Assembly (NCBI GenBank): GCA_965222115.1
Contig: CBDCTJ010000002.1
Coordinates: forward strand, 1-38,400
DNA from: Planctomycetota bacterium
Lineage (GTDB): Bacteria > Planctomycetota > PLA2 > JAEUHO01
Direction: 5' to 3'
Length of the DNA stretch: 38,400 bases
Shown here: positions 506 to 34,259 of the stretch, one piece after another
How positions within the stretch are numbered: the stretch's first letter is position 1
How the letters are laid out: each line of letters starts with the position of its first letter
The notes under the pieces: generated by a model
The model's database searches: none
Seen by the model: only the letters and a program-made list of their open reading frames with translations
What the model was told of the DNA's origin: nothing
Made by a program: the position numbers and the translations under genes

Positions 506-1390
506 CTACCACTCATCGTCGCGCATCGGTTCGCCGCTGAACAACTCGCCGTCCGGTGTGACACCGGTTTCTTGTATGGCGCGCGTCGCTTCGTCGGCTT
601 GCTTGGAACCCTGCAGGTCCACGTCGTCTGTAAACTCTTTCGGTACTTCTCCGGTAGATACATAGCACTCGTCCTCGGTTAGCGTTGTCTCGAACGGTGT
701 TTCCTCTCCACGCTCGGTCCGCTCGTCTACGTTGATCGCACGCAGGAAAGCAGGGTCAAGCGGTAGTGTCTTGCACAGTCGCCGAATGACCGTCTTTTTC
801 GCCATCTCGCCCCAGTGCTTCTCCCACGCCTTGCTTCTGGAGGACGCGCTGGTCTGGCGCACGTGATCAACTTCATCGCGCGTCATCACGTCAACAGCGG
901 GCGGACCATCGGGCATGTGCGCTATGGCGTAAACCCCGATAGGTGTGCGCTTGCCGGGCGCTAGGCCTGGTTTGTGAGTAACGCGCGGGCGCTCGCCAAG
1001 CTCAATCTCGAACTCATCGCCCTCGTAGACGACGTGAGCTACCACCCGGTCAACCAGCTCACTGCGGTACGCGAGTTTCAAGAACCCGCGATAATCCACC
1101 ATGATCGTCGCGTGCATCCCGCCGTTCATATTGCGCGGGATCAAGTGAACCTGCGGCGGGTACGTCTCAGGTTCCAGCCCCATAGCGGCGCACTGCATCA
1201 ACGCGGACTGAAGCGAAGCAAGTGAACACCGAAGCAGGTCCGGCTTTGACATGATCGCGGTTTGGCACACACGAGCCAGCCGCACCGGGTCCACGCCGTC
1301 AACAACCGCCTTTTGAATCTCAGGTAAAGACCGCTGCACCATCGACGCAACAGACTTGCGCTTTTCGTTTAGCACCATGCTCGTATTCAT
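506..1390 (-). CDS. recT: RecT-family single-strand annealing recombinase
   Basis: Typical RecT motifs: CSLASLQSALMQCAAMGLEP, VDYRGFLKLAYRS, VYEGDEF, WEKHWGEMAKKTVIRRLCKTLP; acidic C-terminal tail. Confidence 0.95.
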   Translation of the reverse strand: MNTSMVLNEKRKSVASMVQRSLPEIQKAVVDGVDPVRLARVCQTAIMSKPDLLRCSLASLQSALMQCAAMGLEPETYPPQVHLIPRNMNGGMHATIMVDYRGFLKLAYRSELVDRVVAHVVYEGDEFEIELGERPRVTHKPGLAPGKRTPIGVYAIAHMPDGPPAVDVMTRDEVDHVRQTSASSRSKAWEKHWGEMAKKTVIRRLCKTLPLDPAFLRAINVDERTERGEETPFETTLTEDECYVSTGEVPKEFTDDVDLQGSKQADEATRAIQETGVTPDGELFSGEPMRDDEW

Positions 1391-2241
1391 ACTCGCTCCA
1401 GTCCGACGCGCTCACGCATCTCATTCAGTCGCCAGCGAGATAAGCCGATTGGCTCTACCTTCTCGCTTGGCGGGGGCCATGTTCCATCCTCGACGCACTT
1501 CGCTACGCTACGCCGTAAGTCGATATTGTTCGCATACGCTGTCTCAAGCGTCAACGGGTCTAGTGTATAAACGCGGGGCAAGTATGGCGCGTCCTGTCCG
1601 ATCACTGCGTACACGTAGTGCTTCTGTTTCTCGCCCGTCGTTATACTAAACACGTCCATGTAGTGCGCGGCAGACATCCACCACCCGTTGTTCCATAGTG
1701 AGTTAGCAAAAGACGATGGGTCCGTTCCCTTCCCAGTCGTCTTTACGTCACCGATGATTCGTTGTTCGGGTACACGCGCGTCACAACGGGCTTTTAGAAG
1801 TAGCCCGGTCTCCGGGCACTCGGCGATTGCAACGACCTCGCGATGCCCCTCGCTGTTGTTCAGAAGGCTACGGAACAACGGGTTTTCATAAGCGCGGGAA
1901 ACGAGCGCGTCAATGCGGTCAAACGTAGACCTGCGCTCAACACGCTTGCCGGCCTTTACAGCGTCGTCCTTCTGTTTCTTCCATGGGTTTCGGTTCATCG
2001 GACCGTCAACCCACACGACATCCTCGGGCGGCCACGACTCAGGCTCAAGCAGCGCCGTGTGTGCGAGCGTGCCGAACGACTTCGCGGGGCTCGGTTTGTC
2101 AAGCGCGGTGCGGTAGTAGTTACACGCCTCGGGAGACTCAAGCATCTTCGACAAGTCGGAACACGACCACGCGGGGTGTGATAGGTAATCGGCCATCGGT
2201 ACGCCGTGGTGGAGGCCTACGCCTAACGGATCGGAAGTCAT
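1387..2241 (-). CDS. PD-(D/E)XK exonuclease, RecE/ExoVIII-like (DUF3799 type)
   Basis: FGTLAHTALLEPE, ETGLLLKARCD, IIGDVKTT and AAHYMD motifs; ATGA-coupled to recT; start taken at MTSDPLG (2241). Confidence 0.9.
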   Translation of the reverse strand: MTSDPLGVGLHHGVPMADYLSHPAWSCSDLSKMLESPEACNYYRTALDKPSPAKSFGTLAHTALLEPESWPPEDVVWVDGPMNRNPWKKQKDDAVKAGKRVERRSTFDRIDALVSRAYENPLFRSLLNNSEGHREVVAIAECPETGLLLKARCDARVPEQRIIGDVKTTGKGTDPSSFANSLWNNGWWMSAAHYMDVFSITTGEKQKHYVYAVIGQDAPYLPRVYTLDPLTLETAYANNIDLRRSVAKCVEDGTWPPPSEKVEPIGLSRWRLNEMRERVGLERV

Positions 2242-2366
2242 ACGCACACCGCCAATCCAACGACAGCCGCCGCGACCATGGCGACAACACACAGAAAAAC
2301 GACCCCGCTTCGGGCCACGTCGTCACCCGTGCGACCTTGGCCGCCCTTGATACCGTCGGGCCTCAT
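2238..2366 (-). CDS. 42-aa single-TM peptide
   Basis: MRPDGIKGG...VVFLCVVAMVAAAVVGLAVCV; ATGA overlaps at both ends; below the ORF-track cutoff. Confidence 0.6.
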   Translation of the reverse strand: MRPDGIKGGQGRTGDDVARSGVVFLCVVAMVAAAVVGLAVCV

Positions 2367-2590: not shown

Positions 2591-2843
2591 TACTCGCCCC
2601 CTCTGGGAATAAACGTGCGTGGTCCTCTACCGCCAGCTTCGCGGCGGCCTTGATCCGTAGGCGCGCGCCGCACGAAAAATCCTCCGAGTTTGCGTGAGCC
2701 CAGCGACCCATCGAATAGGCGCCGCCGGCACCATCGATACGCACTTCGATGTCCTGAATCTCGCCTCGACGCACATAGACCGTTCCAAGGCACCGTCGCC
2801 CGAACAGCTCCACGAAAAAGAATCGTTCCTCAGTCTTTGCCAT
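2580..2843 (-). CDS. Hypothetical protein
   Basis: 87 aa ORF overlapping both neighbours; GCAGGA before ATG. Confidence 0.6.
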   Translation of the reverse strand: MAKTEERFFFVELFGRRCLGTVYVRRGEIQDIEVRIDGAGGAYSMGRWAHANSEDFSCGARLRIKAAAKLAVEDHARLFPEGASNDR

Positions 2844-3051
2844 TTTCCTGCCTTTCCGCCGCGACGGTCATCGCCGCGAGCATTTCCGATGGTTTCCATT
2901 TCAGGGCGGCCCCAATCGCCTTGACCGTGGCTAGGCGCACGAAATCGCCCCCTGCCTCGACCTTCGCGACCGTGGGCACGCTCACGCCGGCCGACTCGGC
3001 AAGCGCCTCCTGGGTCATCCTGAGCGATTCTCGGCGCTCTTTTGGTGTCAC
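2830..3051 (-). CDS. Cro/XRE-family helix-turn-helix regulator
   Basis: RRESLRMTQEALAESAGVSVPTVAKVEAG...LATVKAIGAAL is a classic XRE HTH; GAGGGAG SD before GTG. Confidence 0.9.
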   Translation of the reverse strand: MTPKERRESLRMTQEALAESAGVSVPTVAKVEAGGDFVRLATVKAIGAALKWKPSEMLAAMTVAAERQENGKD

Positions 3052-3091
3052 GGTATAATCTCCCTCGCGCCAACTAAGCAGAGCGGCCCGC

Positions 3092-3628
3092 CTACCATTC
3101 GGCGCGCACCAAGCGACGGCGGCCGCTGGGGTAGACGATTAGGACACCGTGCCCCGGCATCGCGCGGCGGTCACTCACCTGGAGGCGCTCATCGCCCTCC
3201 TCGACGGCGCGTGCGTACGCCAGGGCGCCTTTTTGGGGCCGCTCCACGGACACGGTTGAGCAGGCTTCGCCGCGGCGGCAGTCACACGTACGGCGTCCAC
3301 GCTCGTCCACCGGGCACGCGTGGGCTATGATCTCTACGCTCGCCGAGTGTGGCGAGCGGAACGCCGCCATTGCCGCCAGCAATTTGGCGGACGGCTCCCA
3401 ATAGTGGTAGCTGTACGTCGACTGGCTTGTTTCCTCCATCGCAAAACAAAAAACGTCGGGTTTTTCGCCTTTGCGGTGCGCGTGCCCGCGCACCTCGGCG
3501 TATGGATGGTGATACACCGTGGTTCGCTGCGGACGCCAGTTCGTGGGGTCCGCGCAATATTCGCACTGGTGTGCGCCGAGCGTCGCCAGTTCTTTCATTG
3601 TGGGCTTCTTCGTCGATTTCGTTCTCAT
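3092..3628 (-). CDS. Cys/His-rich early hypothetical protein (possible metal binding)
   Basis: 178 aa with HQCEYC and HAC...CDC...C motifs; own SD (GAGGG) and leader hairpin. Confidence 0.6.
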   Translation of the reverse strand: MRTKSTKKPTMKELATLGAHQCEYCADPTNWRPQRTTVYHHPYAEVRGHAHRKGEKPDVFCFAMEETSQSTYSYHYWEPSAKLLAAMAAFRSPHSASVEIIAHACPVDERGRRTCDCRRGEACSTVSVERPQKGALAYARAVEEGDERLQVSDRRAMPGHGVLIVYPSGRRRLVRAEW

Positions 3629-3667
3629 TTTGCTTCCCTCTGCCCTTGCCCAGGGTGTTTCGGCGCG

Positions 3668-3910
3668 TTACGCGTTCCGCGCACCATCGACACTAACGAG
3701 CTCGTCGGTATCGCGGTGGCGCATGACGACTCCCCAACCTTTGTATCCCTCTACCTCGGTGACATCTTCGTAGCCCTGGTCTTGCAGCCAGTAGGTTACG
3801 TCGGCTACGCTCGTCGCTACCTCGCCATCCCACATGTCGGGGAGCATGTCTTCGCCCAGGTTGTAGGCGCCTGCGTCGGTTTTGGTCATTTGCTTGATTG
3901 TGATGGCCAT
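3668..3910 (-). CDS. Small acidic early protein directly downstream of the hammerhead
   Basis: 80 aa; AGGA SD 6 nt before ATG; leader hairpin. Confidence 0.75.
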   Translation of the reverse strand: MAITIKQMTKTDAGAYNLGEDMLPDMWDGEVATSVADVTYWLQDQGYEDVTEVEGYKGWGVVMRHRDTDELVSVDGARNA

Positions 3911-3952
3911 GATGTGTCCTTTTGCTCTTGCTAGGGCGTTTGCGTGGGGGCG

Positions 3953-4014
3953 ACCCGCGGTGCCTCATCAGAGTGGGCGCTACCCACTGACGCCCGAGGG
4001 CGTTTCGGCGGGGC
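3953..4014 (-). ncRNA. Type II hammerhead self-cleaving ribozyme
   Basis: Minus strand GCCC-C-GCC-GAA-ACGCC(CUCG)GGCGU-C/AGUGGG(UAGCG)CCCACU-CUGAUGA-GGC-ACCGC-GGGU: intact CUGAUGA and GAAA core, G-C pair closing stem II, perfect stems I and III, GUC triplet with cleavage predicted between 3989 and 3988; intergenic and sense to the operon. Confidence 0.93.
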
Positions 4015-4214
4015 TACGAGCGCCACTCACCGCGCTCTGGTGTCTCATGGCAGATTTTGATCGCGGTGGCTGCGCGATCGCTGCCAGCGTCGATCTCCTC
4101 GATAGCCTCGGCGCTAGGCCACCACACGCCACCGCCGATGTCGTCGCTCACCGTCATGATTCCGCCGTATTCGTTGGCGGTGTAGTTTTCGATTTTCGTT
4201 GCGTGGTCAGTCAT
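4014..4214 (-). CDS. Small acidic early protein, first gene of the leftward operon
   Basis: MTDHATKIENY...GEWRS (66 aa) with AGGAG SD 7 nt upstream; the stop codon abuts the ribozyme. Confidence 0.75.
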   Translation of the reverse strand: MTDHATKIENYTANEYGGIMTVSDDIGGGVWWPSAEAIEEIDAGSDRAATAIKICHETPERGEWRS

Positions 4215-4263
4215 TGTGGATCTCCTGGGCTTGCCGGCCCCGCGAGGCCCCATCGCCTCGACT

Positions 4264-4313
4264 GACCCAAAGAATAGTTTGGATTGCGAGAAACACAAAG
4301 AAAAGTTTGGGTC
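4264..4313 (-). promoter_or_regulatory. Leftward sigma70-like promoter overlapped by two operator-like repeats
   Basis: Minus TTGTGT-N16-TATTCT; plus-strand 15-mers CAAAGAATAGTTTGG (4268-4282) and CAAAGAAAAGTTTGG (4296-4310), 14/15 identical and dyad-like (CAAA-N6-TTTG). Confidence 0.7.
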
Positions 4314-4335
4314 GCGTGGGCGTCTTGGGCGTATT

Positions 4336-4355
4336 TGGTGGGCAATTGTCCACCA
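4336..4355. promoter_or_regulatory. 20-bp near-perfect palindrome in the divergent intergenic region
   Basis: TGGTGGGCAATTGTCCACCA, one G/T mismatch pair. Confidence 0.45.
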
Positions 4356-4400
4356 GAATTGTCGGCCGACGTGTATACGATCGCGCGAAAGGCAGGACAA

Positions 4401-5006
4401 ATGACCAAAAAGACGAAGAAAAAGAGTCGTAAGGCGCGGGCTCGACGTGAACGACCCGTCAGGTACCAAGAATCCCTGGCCGTCGTCGCCCCCGAATTCA
4501 TCTCGATCGAGGAAGAAATGGGATGCCTCGATTGGGTGGCGAGGAACGTCAAGGGGTACGGCCCGGCCATGACGCCGGGTGGAGATTTAGACCCCAATAA
4601 TGTTGTGTGGGTGCAATACAAGATAGATACCGATTGGTCAGGTGCATCAGAACTTCGCCGGCGCGTCTTCAAGTACGCCGCCGAGTGGTTCGAACCTCTC
4701 GACGTGGACCCGTTCGAAGTCGAGCATTTTGAAATGCACTCTTCCATCTACCACCACGGCGGCCAGCGTGATTGGTACTCATGGCGCGATGGTTGGCGGA
4801 AAATCGCGTGGGAACTACACCTAAGCACCCCGCACCAGATGTTCACGGGCGGCGCTCTTGAGTTTTACGATGGCAAGCTGTTCGAACCCGAGTCGCGCAA
4901 ACTCATCGCATACGACTGCAAGCAACGTGTCCGCGTCAAGCCGGTGGCATGTTACAGCTCCGAACTAGCTCACGGAAGGGTGTCGATTCATGGCTGGATC
5001 GGATAG
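4401..5006 (+). CDS. 2OG-Fe(II) oxygenase-fold protein (prolyl-hydroxylase-like), apparently lacking Fe ligands, with basic N-terminus
   Basis: RKIAWELHL...FTGGALEFYD...FEPESRKLIAY...VKPV...GRVSIHGWI follows the double-stranded beta-helix pattern of this family; ATG at 4401 with GGCAGGA SD. Confidence 0.7.
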   Translation: MTKKTKKKSRKARARRERPVRYQESLAVVAPEFISIEEEMGCLDWVARNVKGYGPAMTPGGDLDPNNVVWVQYKIDTDWSGASELRRRVFKYAAEWFEPLDVDPFEVEHFEMHSSIYHHGGQRDWYSWRDGWRKIAWELHLSTPHQMFTGGALEFYDGKLFEPESRKLIAYDCKQRVRVKPVACYSSELAHGRVSIHGWIG

Positions 5007-5370
5007 GCCCTATTCGGAACGCTTCGACGTTGAATCTCTGGCGTACATGACGGACTTCAAAAACGTGCCACCGCATGATGCGATGCTGCGAGGCATTGAG
5101 CTTGGCCGTGTATACCAACGCCTGCTTGAACCCGACGCGTTCTCAATGCCGATAAGCCCGAAGAACGGTAAGCAAGTCGCCCGCATGGTCGATGCGATGG
5201 GTAGAAATGGTCGCGTTCGTTTAGGCGTTGGTGTGGGTGTATGCGATTGCATTGTGATAGTGCAGGAGGCACCAGGCTATGGGCAGAGAGACGACAGCGA
5301 CAACCTAGCAGTGAAAAAAATACTACTTGCGCATGGCGCACATTGTGATACCGACGCCGATGCCCCATAG
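4990..5370 (+). CDS. Hypothetical protein
   Basis: 126 aa ORF overlapping the upstream plus-strand gene and converging on the late operon. Confidence 0.6.
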   Translation: MAGSDRPYSERFDVESLAYMTDFKNVPPHDAMLRGIELGRVYQRLLEPDAFSMPISPKNGKQVARMVDAMGRNGRVRLGVGVGVCDCIVIVQEAPGYGQRDDSDNLAVKKILLAHGAHCDTDADAP

Positions 5371-5387
5371 GAAGCAAAGAAACTCGA

Positions 5388-6179
5388 TCATGCGTACGCC
5401 GCCAATGCTGCGGTTACGTACGCATCAACCGCCGTGTCCTGGTTTGCGTGTACGTCGGGGTCATCGAGCAGCACCATCTGCCCGATAGACGCGTAAAAAT
5501 TCGTTGCTATCGAGTCAGGGGCGTAAGCTGCCCGCATCCAGCGCTCTTGGTATGCAACCAGACGATTATTGGCGTCGGTGTCGGTCATGACGCTGCTCGC
5601 AGTCAATACGGTTTCGGTCGGCGACCCGTGAACCGTTCGGTTCTTCATGGTTCGGTTTTCTAGATCCCATGACGCGATGCAAACCATCCACGTGTTTGTC
5701 GGTGCCGTCACGTTTGCAGACCCAACGCCTTTGGCTCCCGTACGGAAGGACGACGAAAACGCACATTGATACCTAGAATCACCATCTGTCCATAGACCTG
5801 TAGGGGCCAGCGCAGAGTGGTCATCATTGGCGTAACCGATGGGTGTTCCGTCATCACTAAAGTCCGCCATGTACGCAAACTTGGAGTTCATCCTCACGTT
5901 GCAAATAGTGATGATAGACCCGCGTGGGAGAAACGGATTACGACGTTCAAAATATTGGCCCTCTAAGTCCTGGAAATCCAAGCACTCGTGTCCCGGCTCT
6001 GACCCAACGTGTCCGTTTCGAATCGTACTTCCGTCGTTGAATGTTGGCGCTGCACCAACATTGAGCAACGGAACATTCGACGGCCCTTGGTCTGCAAGCT
6101 CGCCGCTTGCGTACTGCCCGCTCACGAACTCGTATGCACTGATAACGCGATCAAGGTTTGCGATGCTGATAAGCGCCAT
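5388..6179 (-). CDS. Beta-rich virion accessory protein, possibly LamG/ConA-like lectin fold
   Basis: 263 aa; TNTWMVCIASWD and FYASIGQMVLLD resemble LamG strands; TAATG-coupled to the esterase. Confidence 0.5.
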   Translation of the reverse strand: MALISIANLDRVISAYEFVSGQYASGELADQGPSNVPLLNVGAAPTFNDGSTIRNGHVGSEPGHECLDFQDLEGQYFERRNPFLPRGSIITICNVRMNSKFAYMADFSDDGTPIGYANDDHSALAPTGLWTDGDSRYQCAFSSSFRTGAKGVGSANVTAPTNTWMVCIASWDLENRTMKNRTVHGSPTETVLTASSVMTDTDANNRLVAYQERWMRAAYAPDSIATNFYASIGQMVLLDDPDVHANQDTAVDAYVTAALAAYA

Positions 6180-10181: not shown

Positions 10182-13100
10182 CTAGTGGAAATCGACCCAC
10201 GTTGTACCATCGAATCCCTCGAAACGTGACGTAGTGGAGTTGAATCGAGTCATACCCATGACACCCGTGGGCCTTTCACCCGTGGTGCCGACCGGCAAAA
10301 TTGTAGCGTCCGTGCCCTCCATTGTCACCACGGCCTCGCCGGATGATTGGTCTACCTCCAGCGATAGAAGCGGCGTTTCATTGCGCGACGAATCTAGCTG
10401 GCTGATTTCCAAAGCATCTCCGTTGCGGCGGATCACGAACGATCCCGCGTCCAGACCTCCGTCAAAGTTGGGGGTTCCGAAGAACTGCGTAACGCCGTCC
10501 GCGAATCCGACCAGCGATTCAACGTCGGAAGATACCGACCCCTCACCCTCCAAAAGGTCGAGTATTTCGACATCGGGCTGGGTGTAGATCGCCCCCCCGT
10601 TGGCCGTTCCGCCGCGCGCTCTCGAAGTGGTGGGGCGCTCAACGTAGCCCCATTCGCCGTTGTCTTGCGTGCCCCATGACCGAAGCGTGACGACGTTGGG
10701 TCGGTTGGCTTCGTCCATTTCCAGGATACGTCGGGGGATCTCCGGGTTGTGAATGAACGACGCGTAGCCCCTCTCAAGCAACTCGGGGCGAAACGTCTGC
10801 GCGGCGAAACCCGTCATCATCGGGTTCATCACGGCGTAAAGCCATTGGCTGTCTTCATCCACCTCGCCGACCGTGTGGTGTATGCCCATGTGCCGGAAGT
10901 TTCCGCGCGCGCCGCCGATGATCGCGCCGCCCTGGCGCATCGGCATGTCGGTGCCGGAAGTGCCAGACGTCCCGTAGGGGACCATGCCGCCATCGGCGCC
11001 TGAACCGCCAACGCCTCCGCCACTTGTTGGGCCGGGAGCATCCGTCCCGCCGCGCCCAGATTCACCGGGCGGAGTCCCGCAGCGTCCAAACGGCTGGATC
11101 GGGAACATCCCTGAACCCCCTCCATCTGGGTAAGTGTCGCCAATAGTACCCCATTCAAATCCATGAAACGGAACCTCGGATGGCGGCCGGAAAAGAGGAG
11201 GGAACCCCGGTAACGGATCTGCCGGGCTGTCCCATCCAGTCCCGCCACCCCCCCTGCTTTCGGGGTTCGAATCAGGCATCGGAACATCCGGTGTCTCACG
11301 ACGCCCGCCGCTTGGGTCCCTGCTTGGTGAACCGCCTCCGCCCTCACCGGTATCTGCGGGAGGATTGGGCCGCAAAACACCACCGCCACCGGACAACGGA
11401 CCCTCGTTCTCGCCGGGCTCGGTGCCGTCATCTGACTCGCCGCCAGACGTGGGACCCTCCGGAGTGCTGCCCGGGGGGATCGGGGTCGATGGTGGCGTCG
11501 TCGGAGCTTTAGGATCGTCTTCGTCGTCATCATCAGTTGGAGGTGTTGTCGGCGGCTCTGATGGAGGCCGCTTGGGAACAAACTCGGGGATCTCCGCGAA
11601 CCACCTCCAGAGCCCAGAAGCTTCACCGGTTATCCAGTCGTGGTCCTTCTTCGCGTCATACGCTAGGTGGACGCGAGAGATTCCAGGCAGTGGGCCGGGC
11701 GTCGGATACTTCAAATTCGTGAACTCAAGCGCTGCGTCTTTTTCCTGGTCTTTGTAAAACAGCGCGGTGGTTGGGATGTGCCCCGAGTTGATCACTTCCC
11801 CGTCCTTAGAGTGGCCGATCGCGTGCTTGTCTTTTTTGAAATGACCGGGGTGTATCGGACCGAACGTTGGAACCGCCGCAAGGAATGCAAGCGCGTTGTT
11901 CGTACCCACCGGTTCGAACTTGCCGGACGCGCACACGCCGATCGCCTCATCTTTTGTCCCGCCCGATCCGCTCGCGCCGGGGCGCTGCGCGTTGCCGCCC
12001 GCTGATCTGCCCCCTTCCCCTCCGCCTCCTCTCGAGCCCTCTGACCCACCGGCGTTCCCTCCTGTGCCTCCCGATCCGCTTCCGCCTTGGCTCCCGCCGT
12101 CACCACCTACCCCACCACCGCCATTCATGACGCCAGGGCCGAGACCCCACGCGGGCCCGGGCTCAACGCCTCGGCCCGCGCCGCTATCCGCGCCGCCGTT
12201 CGAACTATCGTTCCCGCCGCCTGCTCCGTTGCTCCCCGGCGCCCCTCCCGTATTTCTTGGAGGCGGGGTTATTGGCGTCGCGGACGGATGCGCGGGCGCC
12301 CCCGTCACAGGGCCGTCCTTCGTCCCCGGCGTGTTATCTTTCGCCACCCGCGAGTCGCCCTTGGCGTAAATCAATCCGTATCCGGGCACGCCGCCCTGGC
12401 CGGATTGCGCGAACTGCAGGGCTATCGAGTTACCCGGTTGTTTAGGCGCCATGCTTATTTGATCTGGCATTGGAATGACGCGGAACACGGTTTGGATCAT
12501 GGCGGCGCGCCCGCCCCTTCCGGGGTACTCCGCTTTGTCCATGCAGATCGTGTCTTTGGGCTGGAAGTCAACAACGAGCGTGCCCATCGAATCTGAGGGG
12601 AAGGCGTTGGGGCAAATGATTCGACCGTCCAAGCCCGGGAAGATTAGATCCTCCTGCGAGCGTTCCTCAGTGCCTGCCATACTCAAGACCAGCATGCCAG
12701 CCGGCACGTTGGGCAGACATTTAGGCCATTCCTTTACCGTGATCGGGGAGTAACGGCTGTCCTCGTCATAGCTCGAGGAGCGAATCGGGACACATGAAAC
12801 GCTTATCTCTTCATCGTGACCGCCAGTTGTGGATGGGATAGCAAATGAACCGGAGTTAGATAAACGTCCGCGAAGTGTTGACGACGATCCGTCCTCTGGA
12901 ATGACCGATAGGCAGCCAAACGAGTTTTGCCAGCTACCCATTGGGCGGTCGTTGCGGCCCTTCGTTTGATAAAATTGCCACGGGTGTACGTCGCCGAGCG
13001 TTCCCTTGCCGTCCTGTTTGGCGTACTGAACAATGCCCGCATCCTCGTTACCCGACTGCGCTTCGTCTAGCTTCCCGACCCGCATCCCAACCAACTGCTG

Positions 13101-13184
13101 GCGTATACCGATCGGTGGGTTGCTGTCGTCGTGATCTTGTAATGGGAATACGCCGATGTCGGCCCAGTCAGTGGGGAAGCTCAT
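10182..13184 (-). CDS. 1000-aa tail/virion protein with long Gly- and Pro-rich linkers and a fibre-type C-terminal motif
   Basis: C-terminus ILPVGTTGERPTGVMGMTRFNSTTSRFEGFDGTTW resembles a motif common in phage tail fibres; last large gene of the tail module. Confidence 0.7.
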   Translation of the reverse strand: MSFPTDWADIGVFPLQDHDDSNPPIGIRQQLVGMRVGKLDEAQSGNEDAGIVQYAKQDGKGTLGDVHPWQFYQTKGRNDRPMGSWQNSFGCLSVIPEDGSSSTLRGRLSNSGSFAIPSTTGGHDEEISVSCVPIRSSSYDEDSRYSPITVKEWPKCLPNVPAGMLVLSMAGTEERSQEDLIFPGLDGRIICPNAFPSDSMGTLVVDFQPKDTICMDKAEYPGRGGRAAMIQTVFRVIPMPDQISMAPKQPGNSIALQFAQSGQGGVPGYGLIYAKGDSRVAKDNTPGTKDGPVTGAPAHPSATPITPPPRNTGGAPGSNGAGGGNDSSNGGADSGAGRGVEPGPAWGLGPGVMNGGGGVGGDGGSQGGSGSGGTGGNAGGSEGSRGGGGEGGRSAGGNAQRPGASGSGGTKDEAIGVCASGKFEPVGTNNALAFLAAVPTFGPIHPGHFKKDKHAIGHSKDGEVINSGHIPTTALFYKDQEKDAALEFTNLKYPTPGPLPGISRVHLAYDAKKDHDWITGEASGLWRWFAEIPEFVPKRPPSEPPTTPPTDDDDEDDPKAPTTPPSTPIPPGSTPEGPTSGGESDDGTEPGENEGPLSGGGGVLRPNPPADTGEGGGGSPSRDPSGGRRETPDVPMPDSNPESRGGGGTGWDSPADPLPGFPPLFRPPSEVPFHGFEWGTIGDTYPDGGGSGMFPIQPFGRCGTPPGESGRGGTDAPGPTSGGGVGGSGADGGMVPYGTSGTSGTDMPMRQGGAIIGGARGNFRHMGIHHTVGEVDEDSQWLYAVMNPMMTGFAAQTFRPELLERGYASFIHNPEIPRRILEMDEANRPNVVTLRSWGTQDNGEWGYVERPTTSRARGGTANGGAIYTQPDVEILDLLEGEGSVSSDVESLVGFADGVTQFFGTPNFDGGLDAGSFVIRRNGDALEISQLDSSRNETPLLSLEVDQSSGEAVVTMEGTDATILPVGTTGERPTGVMGMTRFNSTTSRFEGFDGTTWVDFH

Positions 13185-34018: not shown

Positions 34019-34259
34019 CCCCGCCTCCTTTCTCAAGCTCCGCGAGTAGGGCGTTTCGTTTCATTTTCTCACGCGCGTACGCATTGCGGCGTCTTTGCTC
34101 AACCGCCGCCTCATACGCACTCGCTGGCCCTGTGCAAACCGCGCATGGGTCGCCAAACGCGAATCCAAATCCGTCACACTCTGGACACTTGACACGTGTT
34201 ACGAATCGAATGTCGCCCGCCCACGATTCGGGATACGCAGGCCCGCCGTCTTTACTCAT
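34011..34259 (-). CDS. Small zinc-finger-like protein
   Basis: MSKDGGPAYP start; CPECDG...CAVCTG. Confidence 0.6.
   Translation of the reverse strand: MSKDGGPAYPESWAGDIRFVTRVKCPECDGFGFAFGDPCAVCTGPASAYEAAVEQRRRNAYAREKMKRNALLAELEKGGGGE

Follow-up and report, generated by a model that had tools for sequence, protein, structure and literature searches.

A type II hammerhead ribozyme and a putative hammerhead stub in neighboring spacers of a phage early operon

Type II hammerhead ribozymes (Rfam family RF02276) are known from the intergenic regions of phages and prophages, and Perreault et al. (2011, PMC3088659) described clustered hammerheads on either side of one prophage gene or a short run of genes, the genes so flanked being variable. 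In temperate phages, mosaic joints are in turn attributed to Rad52-like recombinases (Redβ, RecT, Erf) acting on partly identical DNA. Those of the RecT type drive mosaicism on diverged DNA, according to De Paepe et al. (2014, PMC3945230), who put the minimal segment for efficient pairing at 23-27 bp for Redβ and at 31-34 bp for RecA. Here we describe a compact type II hammerhead, and a related spacer lacking an intact one, in the early operon of contig CBDCTJ010000002.1 from a Planctomycetota bacterium. The window analyzed is the entire 38,400-base contig (C2) of a seven-contig, 4.55-Mb assembly. Because it encodes a large terminase, a portal, a minor head protein, and a virion structural protein, the window is read from its gene content as a tailed phage or prophage.

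The early operon runs leftward in the order P66, spacer 1, P80, spacer 2, P178, a helix-turn-helix (HTH) regulator, two small open reading frames (ORFs), a RecE-like protein, and RecT. The features in and around the two spacers are the following, in the direction of transcription.

4014-4214, minus strand: P66, first gene of the leftward early operon, with its ORF and ATG as read.
3911-4013, minus strand: spacer 1, 103 nt, between P66 and P80.
3997-4013, minus strand: copy A of the boundary motif (17 nt), which begins directly after the P66 stop codon and holds the upstream copy (4005-3997) of a 9-mer repeated within the spacer.
3954-4011, minus strand: type II hammerhead ribozyme (RF02276, 30.1 bits; model R1, 51.8 bits).
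3933-3949, minus strand: copy B, in the linker from the ribozyme to the Shine-Dalgarno sequence, identical to copy A at 14 of 17 positions.
3911-3932, minus strand: spacer 1 tail, holding the Shine-Dalgarno sequence of P80.
3668-3910, minus strand: P80, whose sole protein match is itself.
3629-3667, minus strand: spacer 2, 39 nt, between P80 and P178; a putative hammerhead stub followed by a Shine-Dalgarno tail.
3665-3652, minus strand: copy C, the 14-mer of the putative stub, 13/14 identical to copy A and 15/17 (88%) identical to the ribozyme when aligned colinearly.
3092-3628, minus strand: P178, cysteine-rich, whose sole protein match is itself.

When the window was scanned against Rfam at the gathering threshold, zero matches were returned. 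At relaxed thresholds the sole credible match was Hammerhead_II (RF02276) at 3954-4010 on the minus strand, scoring 30.1 bits with E-values of 5.5e-4 over 801 nt and 0.027 over the window. Relaxed matches to mir-BART1 and isrG lay far under threshold and were taken as spurious. A covariance model, R1, was built from 91 distinct compact viral hammerheads with the window's copy left out, and gave the window element 51.8 bits and a rough E-value of 7.5e-12; the runner-up in the window reached 9.9 bits. A strict pattern derived from the window element, consisting of GCCGAAAC, stem III, GTC, stem I, and CTGATGAGGC, matched at a single site in the window and at none in 100 shuffles. The same pattern had 0 matches in genome contigs and 2 records in a metagenome scan. 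Whole-genome searches with RF02276 were uninformative, as the window's own ribozyme was not returned and the controls were silent.

Aligned to the RF02276 and R1 cores, the minus strand carries CUGAUGA at 3971-3965 and GAAA at 4006-4003. The cleavage triplet GUC lies at 3991-3989, and A4003 is able to pair with U3990, corresponding to the A15.1-U16.1 pair. Stem III (about 4001-3992) has 4-5 pairs and stem I (3988-3972) has 6 pairs and a 5-nt loop; both are closed by loops, and stem II, formed by strands 4009-4007 and 3964-3962 (GCC/GGC), is open. Applied to the 91 viral members, RNAalifold returned the type II hammerhead fold, and 10 of its 15 pairs showed compensatory changes. For a pseudoknot joining the stem I loop to the 3' tail, about 3 pairs at most are available, GCG of the loop with CGC of the tail, and many short-loop members among the 91 aligned viral hammerheads are likewise without an evident pseudoknot. 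With all of the core letters present and its R1 score, the element belongs to a large group of viral type II hammerheads despite its Rfam score below the cut-off, and self-cleavage is predicted after C3989.

The layout of spacer 1 was compared with that of hammerheads in other viruses. Our sample comprised at least 146 viral hammerheads in at least 120 IMG/VR stretches found with the strict pattern, and all comparisons are among the matches listed; the layout statistics used 129 viral hammerheads that had 300 nt or more of flanking sequence. The P66 stop codon lies 4 nt upstream of the ribozyme, and the linker to the Shine-Dalgarno sequence is 51 nt, longish for the family. An upstream ORF stop was found within 40 nt in 118/129 viral hammerheads and within 5 nt in 95/129 (median 2), and a downstream Shine-Dalgarno sequence and start codon within 150 nt in 122/129. 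The linker in these 122 had a median of 27 nt with quartiles of 19 and 36, and was at least 51 nt in 20 of them. The succession of stop codon, ribozyme, short linker, Shine-Dalgarno sequence, and start codon is the usual layout for phage hammerheads.

The window element is therefore readily set beside the described systems. Like the phage hammerheads of RF02276, it has CUGAUGA, GAAA, a GUC triplet, and an open stem II, and it stands between co-directional ORFs, right after a stop codon and ahead of a Shine-Dalgarno sequence. Unlike typical RF02276 members, it scores 30.1 as against 37 bits, its stem I loop is short (5 nt) with no more than 3 possible pairs to the 3' tail, and its long linker (51 nt) contains a partial copy of the ribozyme's own start. 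It shares with the clustered prophage hammerheads described by Perreault et al. (PMC3088659) a location in a polycistronic phage early operon, a gene (P80) placed between two hammerhead-type spacers, and unconserved neighboring genes. In contrast to those clusters, the window has one intact ribozyme, and the second spacer carries a stub of 14-17 nt; two or more intact hammerheads around a gene were not found, the strict pattern matching once in the window. Truncated stubs beside intact copies are not mentioned in the text of PMC3088659, whose supplements may list such copies. The first-pass annotation had presented the locus as the best candidate for an undescribed system, but hammerheads flanking variable prophage genes were already reported in that work, and what we find looks like the gain or loss of a known phage element rather than a new system.

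Retrozymes, which are eukaryotic retroelements carrying hammerheads and having target-site duplications, also invite comparison, in that the window hammerhead adjoins a short direct repeat. They differ from the window, where one repeat copy lies inside the ribozyme and there is neither a second ribozyme nor any retroelement feature; a repeat of this kind was seen at 0/145 other phage hammerheads.

Multi-hammerhead operons were common in the viral sample, with 8 hammerheads in L025 and 6 in L099, for example. Using the first 20 nt of each of the 146 viral hammerheads as a probe in its own locus, we found 57 same-contig paralogous sites among the matches listed. An intact core was present in 53 of these, two carried a CCGAUGAG core (L025), and two were truncated (L044 and L093): the 5' strand, GAAAC, and the hairpin of stem III remain, and stem I and the core are gone. 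In the metagenome contig L135, five hammerhead-type spacers occur within 4.5 kb, of which three are intact, one has CUAAUGA, and one is truncated, retaining its 5' part as far as GUC, with the same 5' start and the same linker to the Shine-Dalgarno sequence, but neither stem I nor the core. Spacers with and without an intact ribozyme thus stand side by side in at least three other phage contigs, and the claim that the neighboring spacers of the window are related, one with and one without the ribozyme, holds and has analogues in L044, L093, and L135. In each of these three relics the cut falls after stem III, not at a repeat.

Two further observations were made on the viral hammerheads. The minus strand of locus L025 holds an array of about 5 kb between small genes, comprising 8 intact cores, 1 with CUGAAGAG, and 2 with CCGAUGAG. 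In 12 of the 141 distinct viral type II hammerheads (loci L014-L133), CUGAUGAGGC is followed by CATCAG at an offset of 0-1, and CATCAG occurs within 30 nt in 15/141 as compared to 3 in the upstream control window. Being complementary to CUGAUG, it could fold back onto that part of the core.

Spacer 2 shares with spacer 1 the 14-mer CGCCGAAACRCCCT, the 5' terminus of the ribozyme itself. Matched without mismatch, this 14-mer occurs in the window at spacers 1 and 2 only, and the same two spacers are its only sites in the 4.55-Mb assembly (9.1 Mb counting both strands). A 12-mer, GCCGAAACRCCC, has 6 occurrences on both strands of the 4.55 Mb, two of them at spacers 1 and 2. The stub lies 3 nt after the P80 stop codon, as compared to 4 nt after the P66 stop codon in spacer 1. 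The unique shared 14-mer and the near-equal stop offset together indicate that the opening letters of a hammerhead stand in spacer 2 at their canonical position. No hammerhead was detected in spacer 2 with Rfam to an E-value of 10, nor with R1 to an E-value of 10 with filters off. It has no stem I and no CUGAUGA, and the only CTGATGA nearby is that in the region of the spacer 1 ribozyme. Spacer 2 is not a ribozyme, its catalytic core being gone. A 64-nt rolling-circle unit, or a split (trans) hammerhead completed by spacer 2, was likewise considered and rejected, there being no second cleavage site and a single CTGATGA in the vicinity.

The explanation we favor, and consider probable, is that spacer 1 holds an intact type II hammerhead and that spacer 2 is the dead stub of a sister spacer, produced by ordinary decay and rearrangement. 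The operon transcript would self-cleave after C3989, leaving the P66 message with a 3' stem III hairpin and a cyclic phosphate and giving a downstream message that would carry the stem I hairpin and a 5'-OH at its head, 78 nt ahead of the P80 start; cleavage would uncouple the fates of the P66 and downstream messages. Spacer 2 would be a sister of spacer 1 after internal deletion of the catalytic part, in which the first 14-17 letters of the ribozyme remain. Copy B, in the linker of spacer 1, would be a third and more decayed copy of the boundary (14/17), and with this third copy the boundary would have been duplicated or recombined at least twice. Beyond the observed sequences and statistics, the family membership of the ribozyme, and the analogous relics elsewhere, we infer that the direction of change was loss in spacer 2 rather than gain in spacer 1, and that the loss occurred by deletion.

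Several results weigh against this explanation. The RF02276 score of 30.1 bits is under the Rfam gathering cut-off of 37, and the folding energies of spacers 1 and 2 are no better than those of shuffles (z of 0.64 and -0.30). Spacer 2 retains less than the three outside relics do, with a degenerate stem III in which 2 standard pairs are possible. A strict census placed 1 of 26 core-less GCCGAAAC sites between a stop codon and a Shine-Dalgarno start (the control of 60 permuted 8-mers had a mean of 0.47 and a maximum of 4), and a general class of enriched hammerhead stubs was dropped as the census showed no enrichment. Finally, no relative of the phage was found that would show loss in spacer 2 rather than gain in spacer 1. 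None appeared in the GenBank phage collection in near or distant mode, and a DNA search of 61 related genomes gave only chance-sized matches of 26-48 nt. P178, P80, and the RecE-like protein had no match in IMG/VR, and P80 and P178 returned only themselves in a word-indexed protein search. RecT had two distant IMG/VR loci at 30-38% identity, and the RecE-like protein had two distant matches at 26-30% in 40 genomes of the order. Two sequencing runs, examined as contigs (0.09 share of words), gave fragmentary cover of the phage at a depth of about 2-6, with no joints, no deletion allele seen, and no piece spanning the site; they bear neither way on a deletion allele or on expression.

The 9-mer AGGGCGTTT occurs at 3933-3941 and at 3997-4005, as the first-pass annotation stated. 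An additional copy is found at 34048-34056, inside a coding frame. The annotation described the ribozyme as bracketed by these 9-mers, but the upstream 9-mer is the ribozyme's own GAAAC core and the 5' strand of stem III; being inside the ribozyme, it does not bracket it. In copy B, G12 of the GAAAC core is replaced, and copy B is therefore unable to act as a core. The bare 9-mer is only mildly unusual: a 9-nt word was shared with the ribozyme in 87/5,000 shuffled linkers and 29/3,000 random contig pieces, and 3/144 other viral hammerheads share one with their own 3' flank (1/144 from the 5' 24 nt). The 651 nt around the spacers hold 12 direct-repeat families, an exact 11-mer included. This 11-nt repeat, at 3710-3720 in P80 coding DNA and at 4060-4070 in P66 coding DNA, is probably due to chance and serves as a yardstick for the 9-mer. 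From CCCC after the P66 stop codon, however, the repeat extends to 14/17 letters (82%), a match reached in 3/2,000 shuffles, in 15/3,000 random contig pieces, and in 0/145 other viral hammerhead spacers, where the maximum was 13, in two of them. Given its rarity in both shuffles and other hammerhead spacers, we take the extended repeat in spacer 1 as real. It does not have the form of a target-site duplication, since its upstream copy is inside the ribozyme and no such repeat (14/17) occurs at the 145 other viral hammerheads.

The repeat might have been the substrate of the deletion. Recombination or slippage running exactly from one 9-17-nt repeat to the other would then have turned a spacer resembling spacer 1 into spacer 2, and RecE/RecT would use such short homologies to gain, lose, and shuffle the early genes as cassettes. 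Removing in silico the 64 nt between the 9-mers does yield the product that the first-pass annotation described; it is 39 nt, the same length as spacer 2, and 28/40 aligned columns are identical. The left side of the spacer 2 copy is nearer to copy A (14/16) than to copy B (11/16), 0/82 other Shine-Dalgarno-bearing upstream regions match the spacer 1 tail after copy B as well as spacer 2 does, and no other spacer of the 145 has a repeat at 14/17. The RecT-type recombinases described in PMC3945230, moreover, make phage mosaics on diverged DNA. Against these points, the two spacers, said to be nearly the same, have the 14-mer in common, but downstream of it the likeness of the "excised" spacer 1 tail to the spacer 2 tail (score 7) was reached by 878/10,000 shuffles, and 5/82 other upstream regions match the spacer 2 tail equally well. 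Aligning spacer 2 colinearly with the ribozyme interior, with no 64-nt deletion, gives a score of 4 (reached by 1,073/10,000 shuffles), and over the whole spacers the local scores are 18 for the "excised" and 17 for the colinear alignment. As the two alignments fit about equally, the endpoints of the deletion cannot be told, and the 9-mers are not upheld as such, the three outside relics having kept the 5' part through stem III. Perfect identity between the spacers extends over 9 nt at most, under the 23-27 bp of Redβ (PMC3945230), and the motif is present in two spacers only. We consider this history unlikely.

A scar of fusion would account for the repeat in another manner. An intact hammerhead spacer would have been joined to the start of an older stub spacer, represented by copy B and the tail, either through loss of an intervening gene or through import of P66 with its ribozyme. 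Copy B opens with the same CCCC as copy A after the stop codon and thus has the look of a spacer start; copy B plus the tail and spacer 2 are both 39 nt; the 51-nt linker compares with a median of 27 and with 20/122 linkers at least as long; and near-identical hammerhead spacers lie between unrelated ORFs in other phages. The intermediate state, however, was seen in no relative, and a tandem boundary in 0/145 other viral hammerhead spacers. The two viral-contig relatives of P66 are followed by plain spacers with a hammerhead in 0/2 loci, so that a conserved module of P66 plus ribozyme, which we had considered, is not supported. Such a fusion appears improbable.

More broadly, hammerhead spacers, each a ribozyme of 50-65 nt plus a linker, might be portable homology joints that let RecT-like proteins swap, gain, or drop early genes, with the duplicated boundary and the stub as scars. 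We identified 28 viral hammerhead pairs with at least 85% identity in the variable interior, 3 of them with flanks too short. In 16 testable pairs from different contigs, both flanks were DNA-homologous in 8, the upstream flank only in 2, and neither in 6. Comparison by blastp of the adjacent ORFs in the 8 non-syntenic pairs gave no match on either side in 5; the remaining three had, respectively, an upstream match only, a weak downstream match only, and no downstream match with an upstream ORF too short. Some of these pairs have members in common (L019, L031, and L093 make up a trio, and L115 enters twice), so that not every pair is independent. Near-identical hammerhead spacers do join unrelated ORFs in different viral contigs, which gives the wider cassette idea some footing in other phages and accords with the variable genes beside clustered prophage hammerheads in PMC3088659. 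Hammerhead, linker, and Shine-Dalgarno sequence are near-identical across L019, L031, L093, L062, L085, L115, and L124 (87-100% in the variable interior), and the hammerheads of L019 and L093 differ at 1/55 nt.

The locus in the window resembles the Rad52-type mosaic joints described in PMC3945230 in having RecT and a RecE-like protein in the same operon and short conserved islands between unrelated genes. It differs from them in that its identity, 9 nt perfect or 13/14, is under 23-27 bp, and in that no recombinant or variant was observed. The spacers are too short in identity for annealing of the Redβ type as given in that paper, and the role proposed in the first-pass annotation for the RecE/RecT pair is accordingly unsupported. 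The notion that the operon is built of modular cassettes fared no better, as the boundary motif is found at two spacers only and is absent from the P178-HTH spacer and the later operon junctions. Our literature searches, made on listings, found no paper proposing hammerheads as recombination joints or cassettes. We hold the idea of portable joints to be distinctly doubtful.

The shared 14-mer could instead be a functional signal in itself, for example a protein-binding or RNA-processing site just after stop codons. This would fit with the same stop-codon offset in both spacers and with GCCGAAAC being intact in spacer 2, where nothing catalytic is left for it to serve. The letters of the 14-mer, however, are those needed by the type II hammerheads of the group, invariant in 91/91 aligned members, and the motif has only two sites in window and assembly, with the other operon spacers lacking it; we regard a signal as very unlikely. 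Chance resemblance among G+C-rich spacers is the least probable of all. In its favor, the bare 9-mer arises in 87/5,000 shuffled linkers, the 651 nt contain 12 repeat families, one of them an exact 11-mer within coding sequence, and the finding was picked out post hoc. Against it, no site other than the two adjacent spacers carries the 14-mer in 9.1 Mb, both strands counted, and the 14/17 match was seen in 3/2,000 shuffles and 0/145 real hammerhead spacers.

The remaining genes of the early operon with assigned functions lie downstream of P178.

2830-3051, minus strand: HTH regulator, downstream of P178.
1387-2292, minus strand: RecE-like exonuclease (PDDEXK, DUF3799; PF12684, 2.4e-15; phrog_412, exonuclease VIII, 3.8e-56).
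506-1390, minus strand: RecT single-strand annealing protein (PF03837, 7.8e-43; phrog_148, 1.3e-62).

P66, P80, and P178 had no match in Pfam or PHROG. P66 contains a conserved C-terminal domain of about 45 aa (GGVWWPS...PMRGEW). A word-indexed protein search with P66 returned itself alone, and its family emerged with a full HMMER search, in which 140 representatives, itself included, were found at an E-value of 1e-3 or below. The listed carriers of the domain are mostly small proteins; a 2,633-aa protein, P0004, matches the domain in 12 stretches. A search of 3000-5500 for promoters of the sigma-70 type found none, and the terminator-like matches do not fall at the spacers.

The long ORFs of the window are almost all on the minus strand. 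Upstream of P66 is a divergent gap, followed by plus-strand ORFs facing it. Two such ORFs (240 and 126 aa) occupy 4284-5370 on the plus strand, in the interval that separates the early operon from the end of the late genes on the minus strand, and the first of these (240 aa) has a weak match to 2OG-Fe(II) oxygenases (E 0.0031, 18.8 bits, below the cut-off of 27). A 1,000-aa protein encoded at 10182-13184 on the minus strand has long low-complexity stretches rich in glycine, serine, and proline, and its sequence reads like that of a tail fibre or receptor-binding protein. Elsewhere in the assembly, contig C6 (48 kb) has 39.7% G+C as compared to 55-59% in the other contigs, and may come from another replicon or organism.

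The locus adds a type II hammerhead scoring below the Rfam threshold, in a phage from a poorly sampled host lineage, and offers a clean example of ribozyme decay, with an intact copy, a duplicate of its boundary, and a dead stub all found in less than 400 nt. Should hammerhead spacers prove to be preferred recombination joints, for which the present evidence falls short, a long-known ribozyme would be linked to the mosaicism of phage genomes, and its role at the RNA level would be joined by one at the DNA level.

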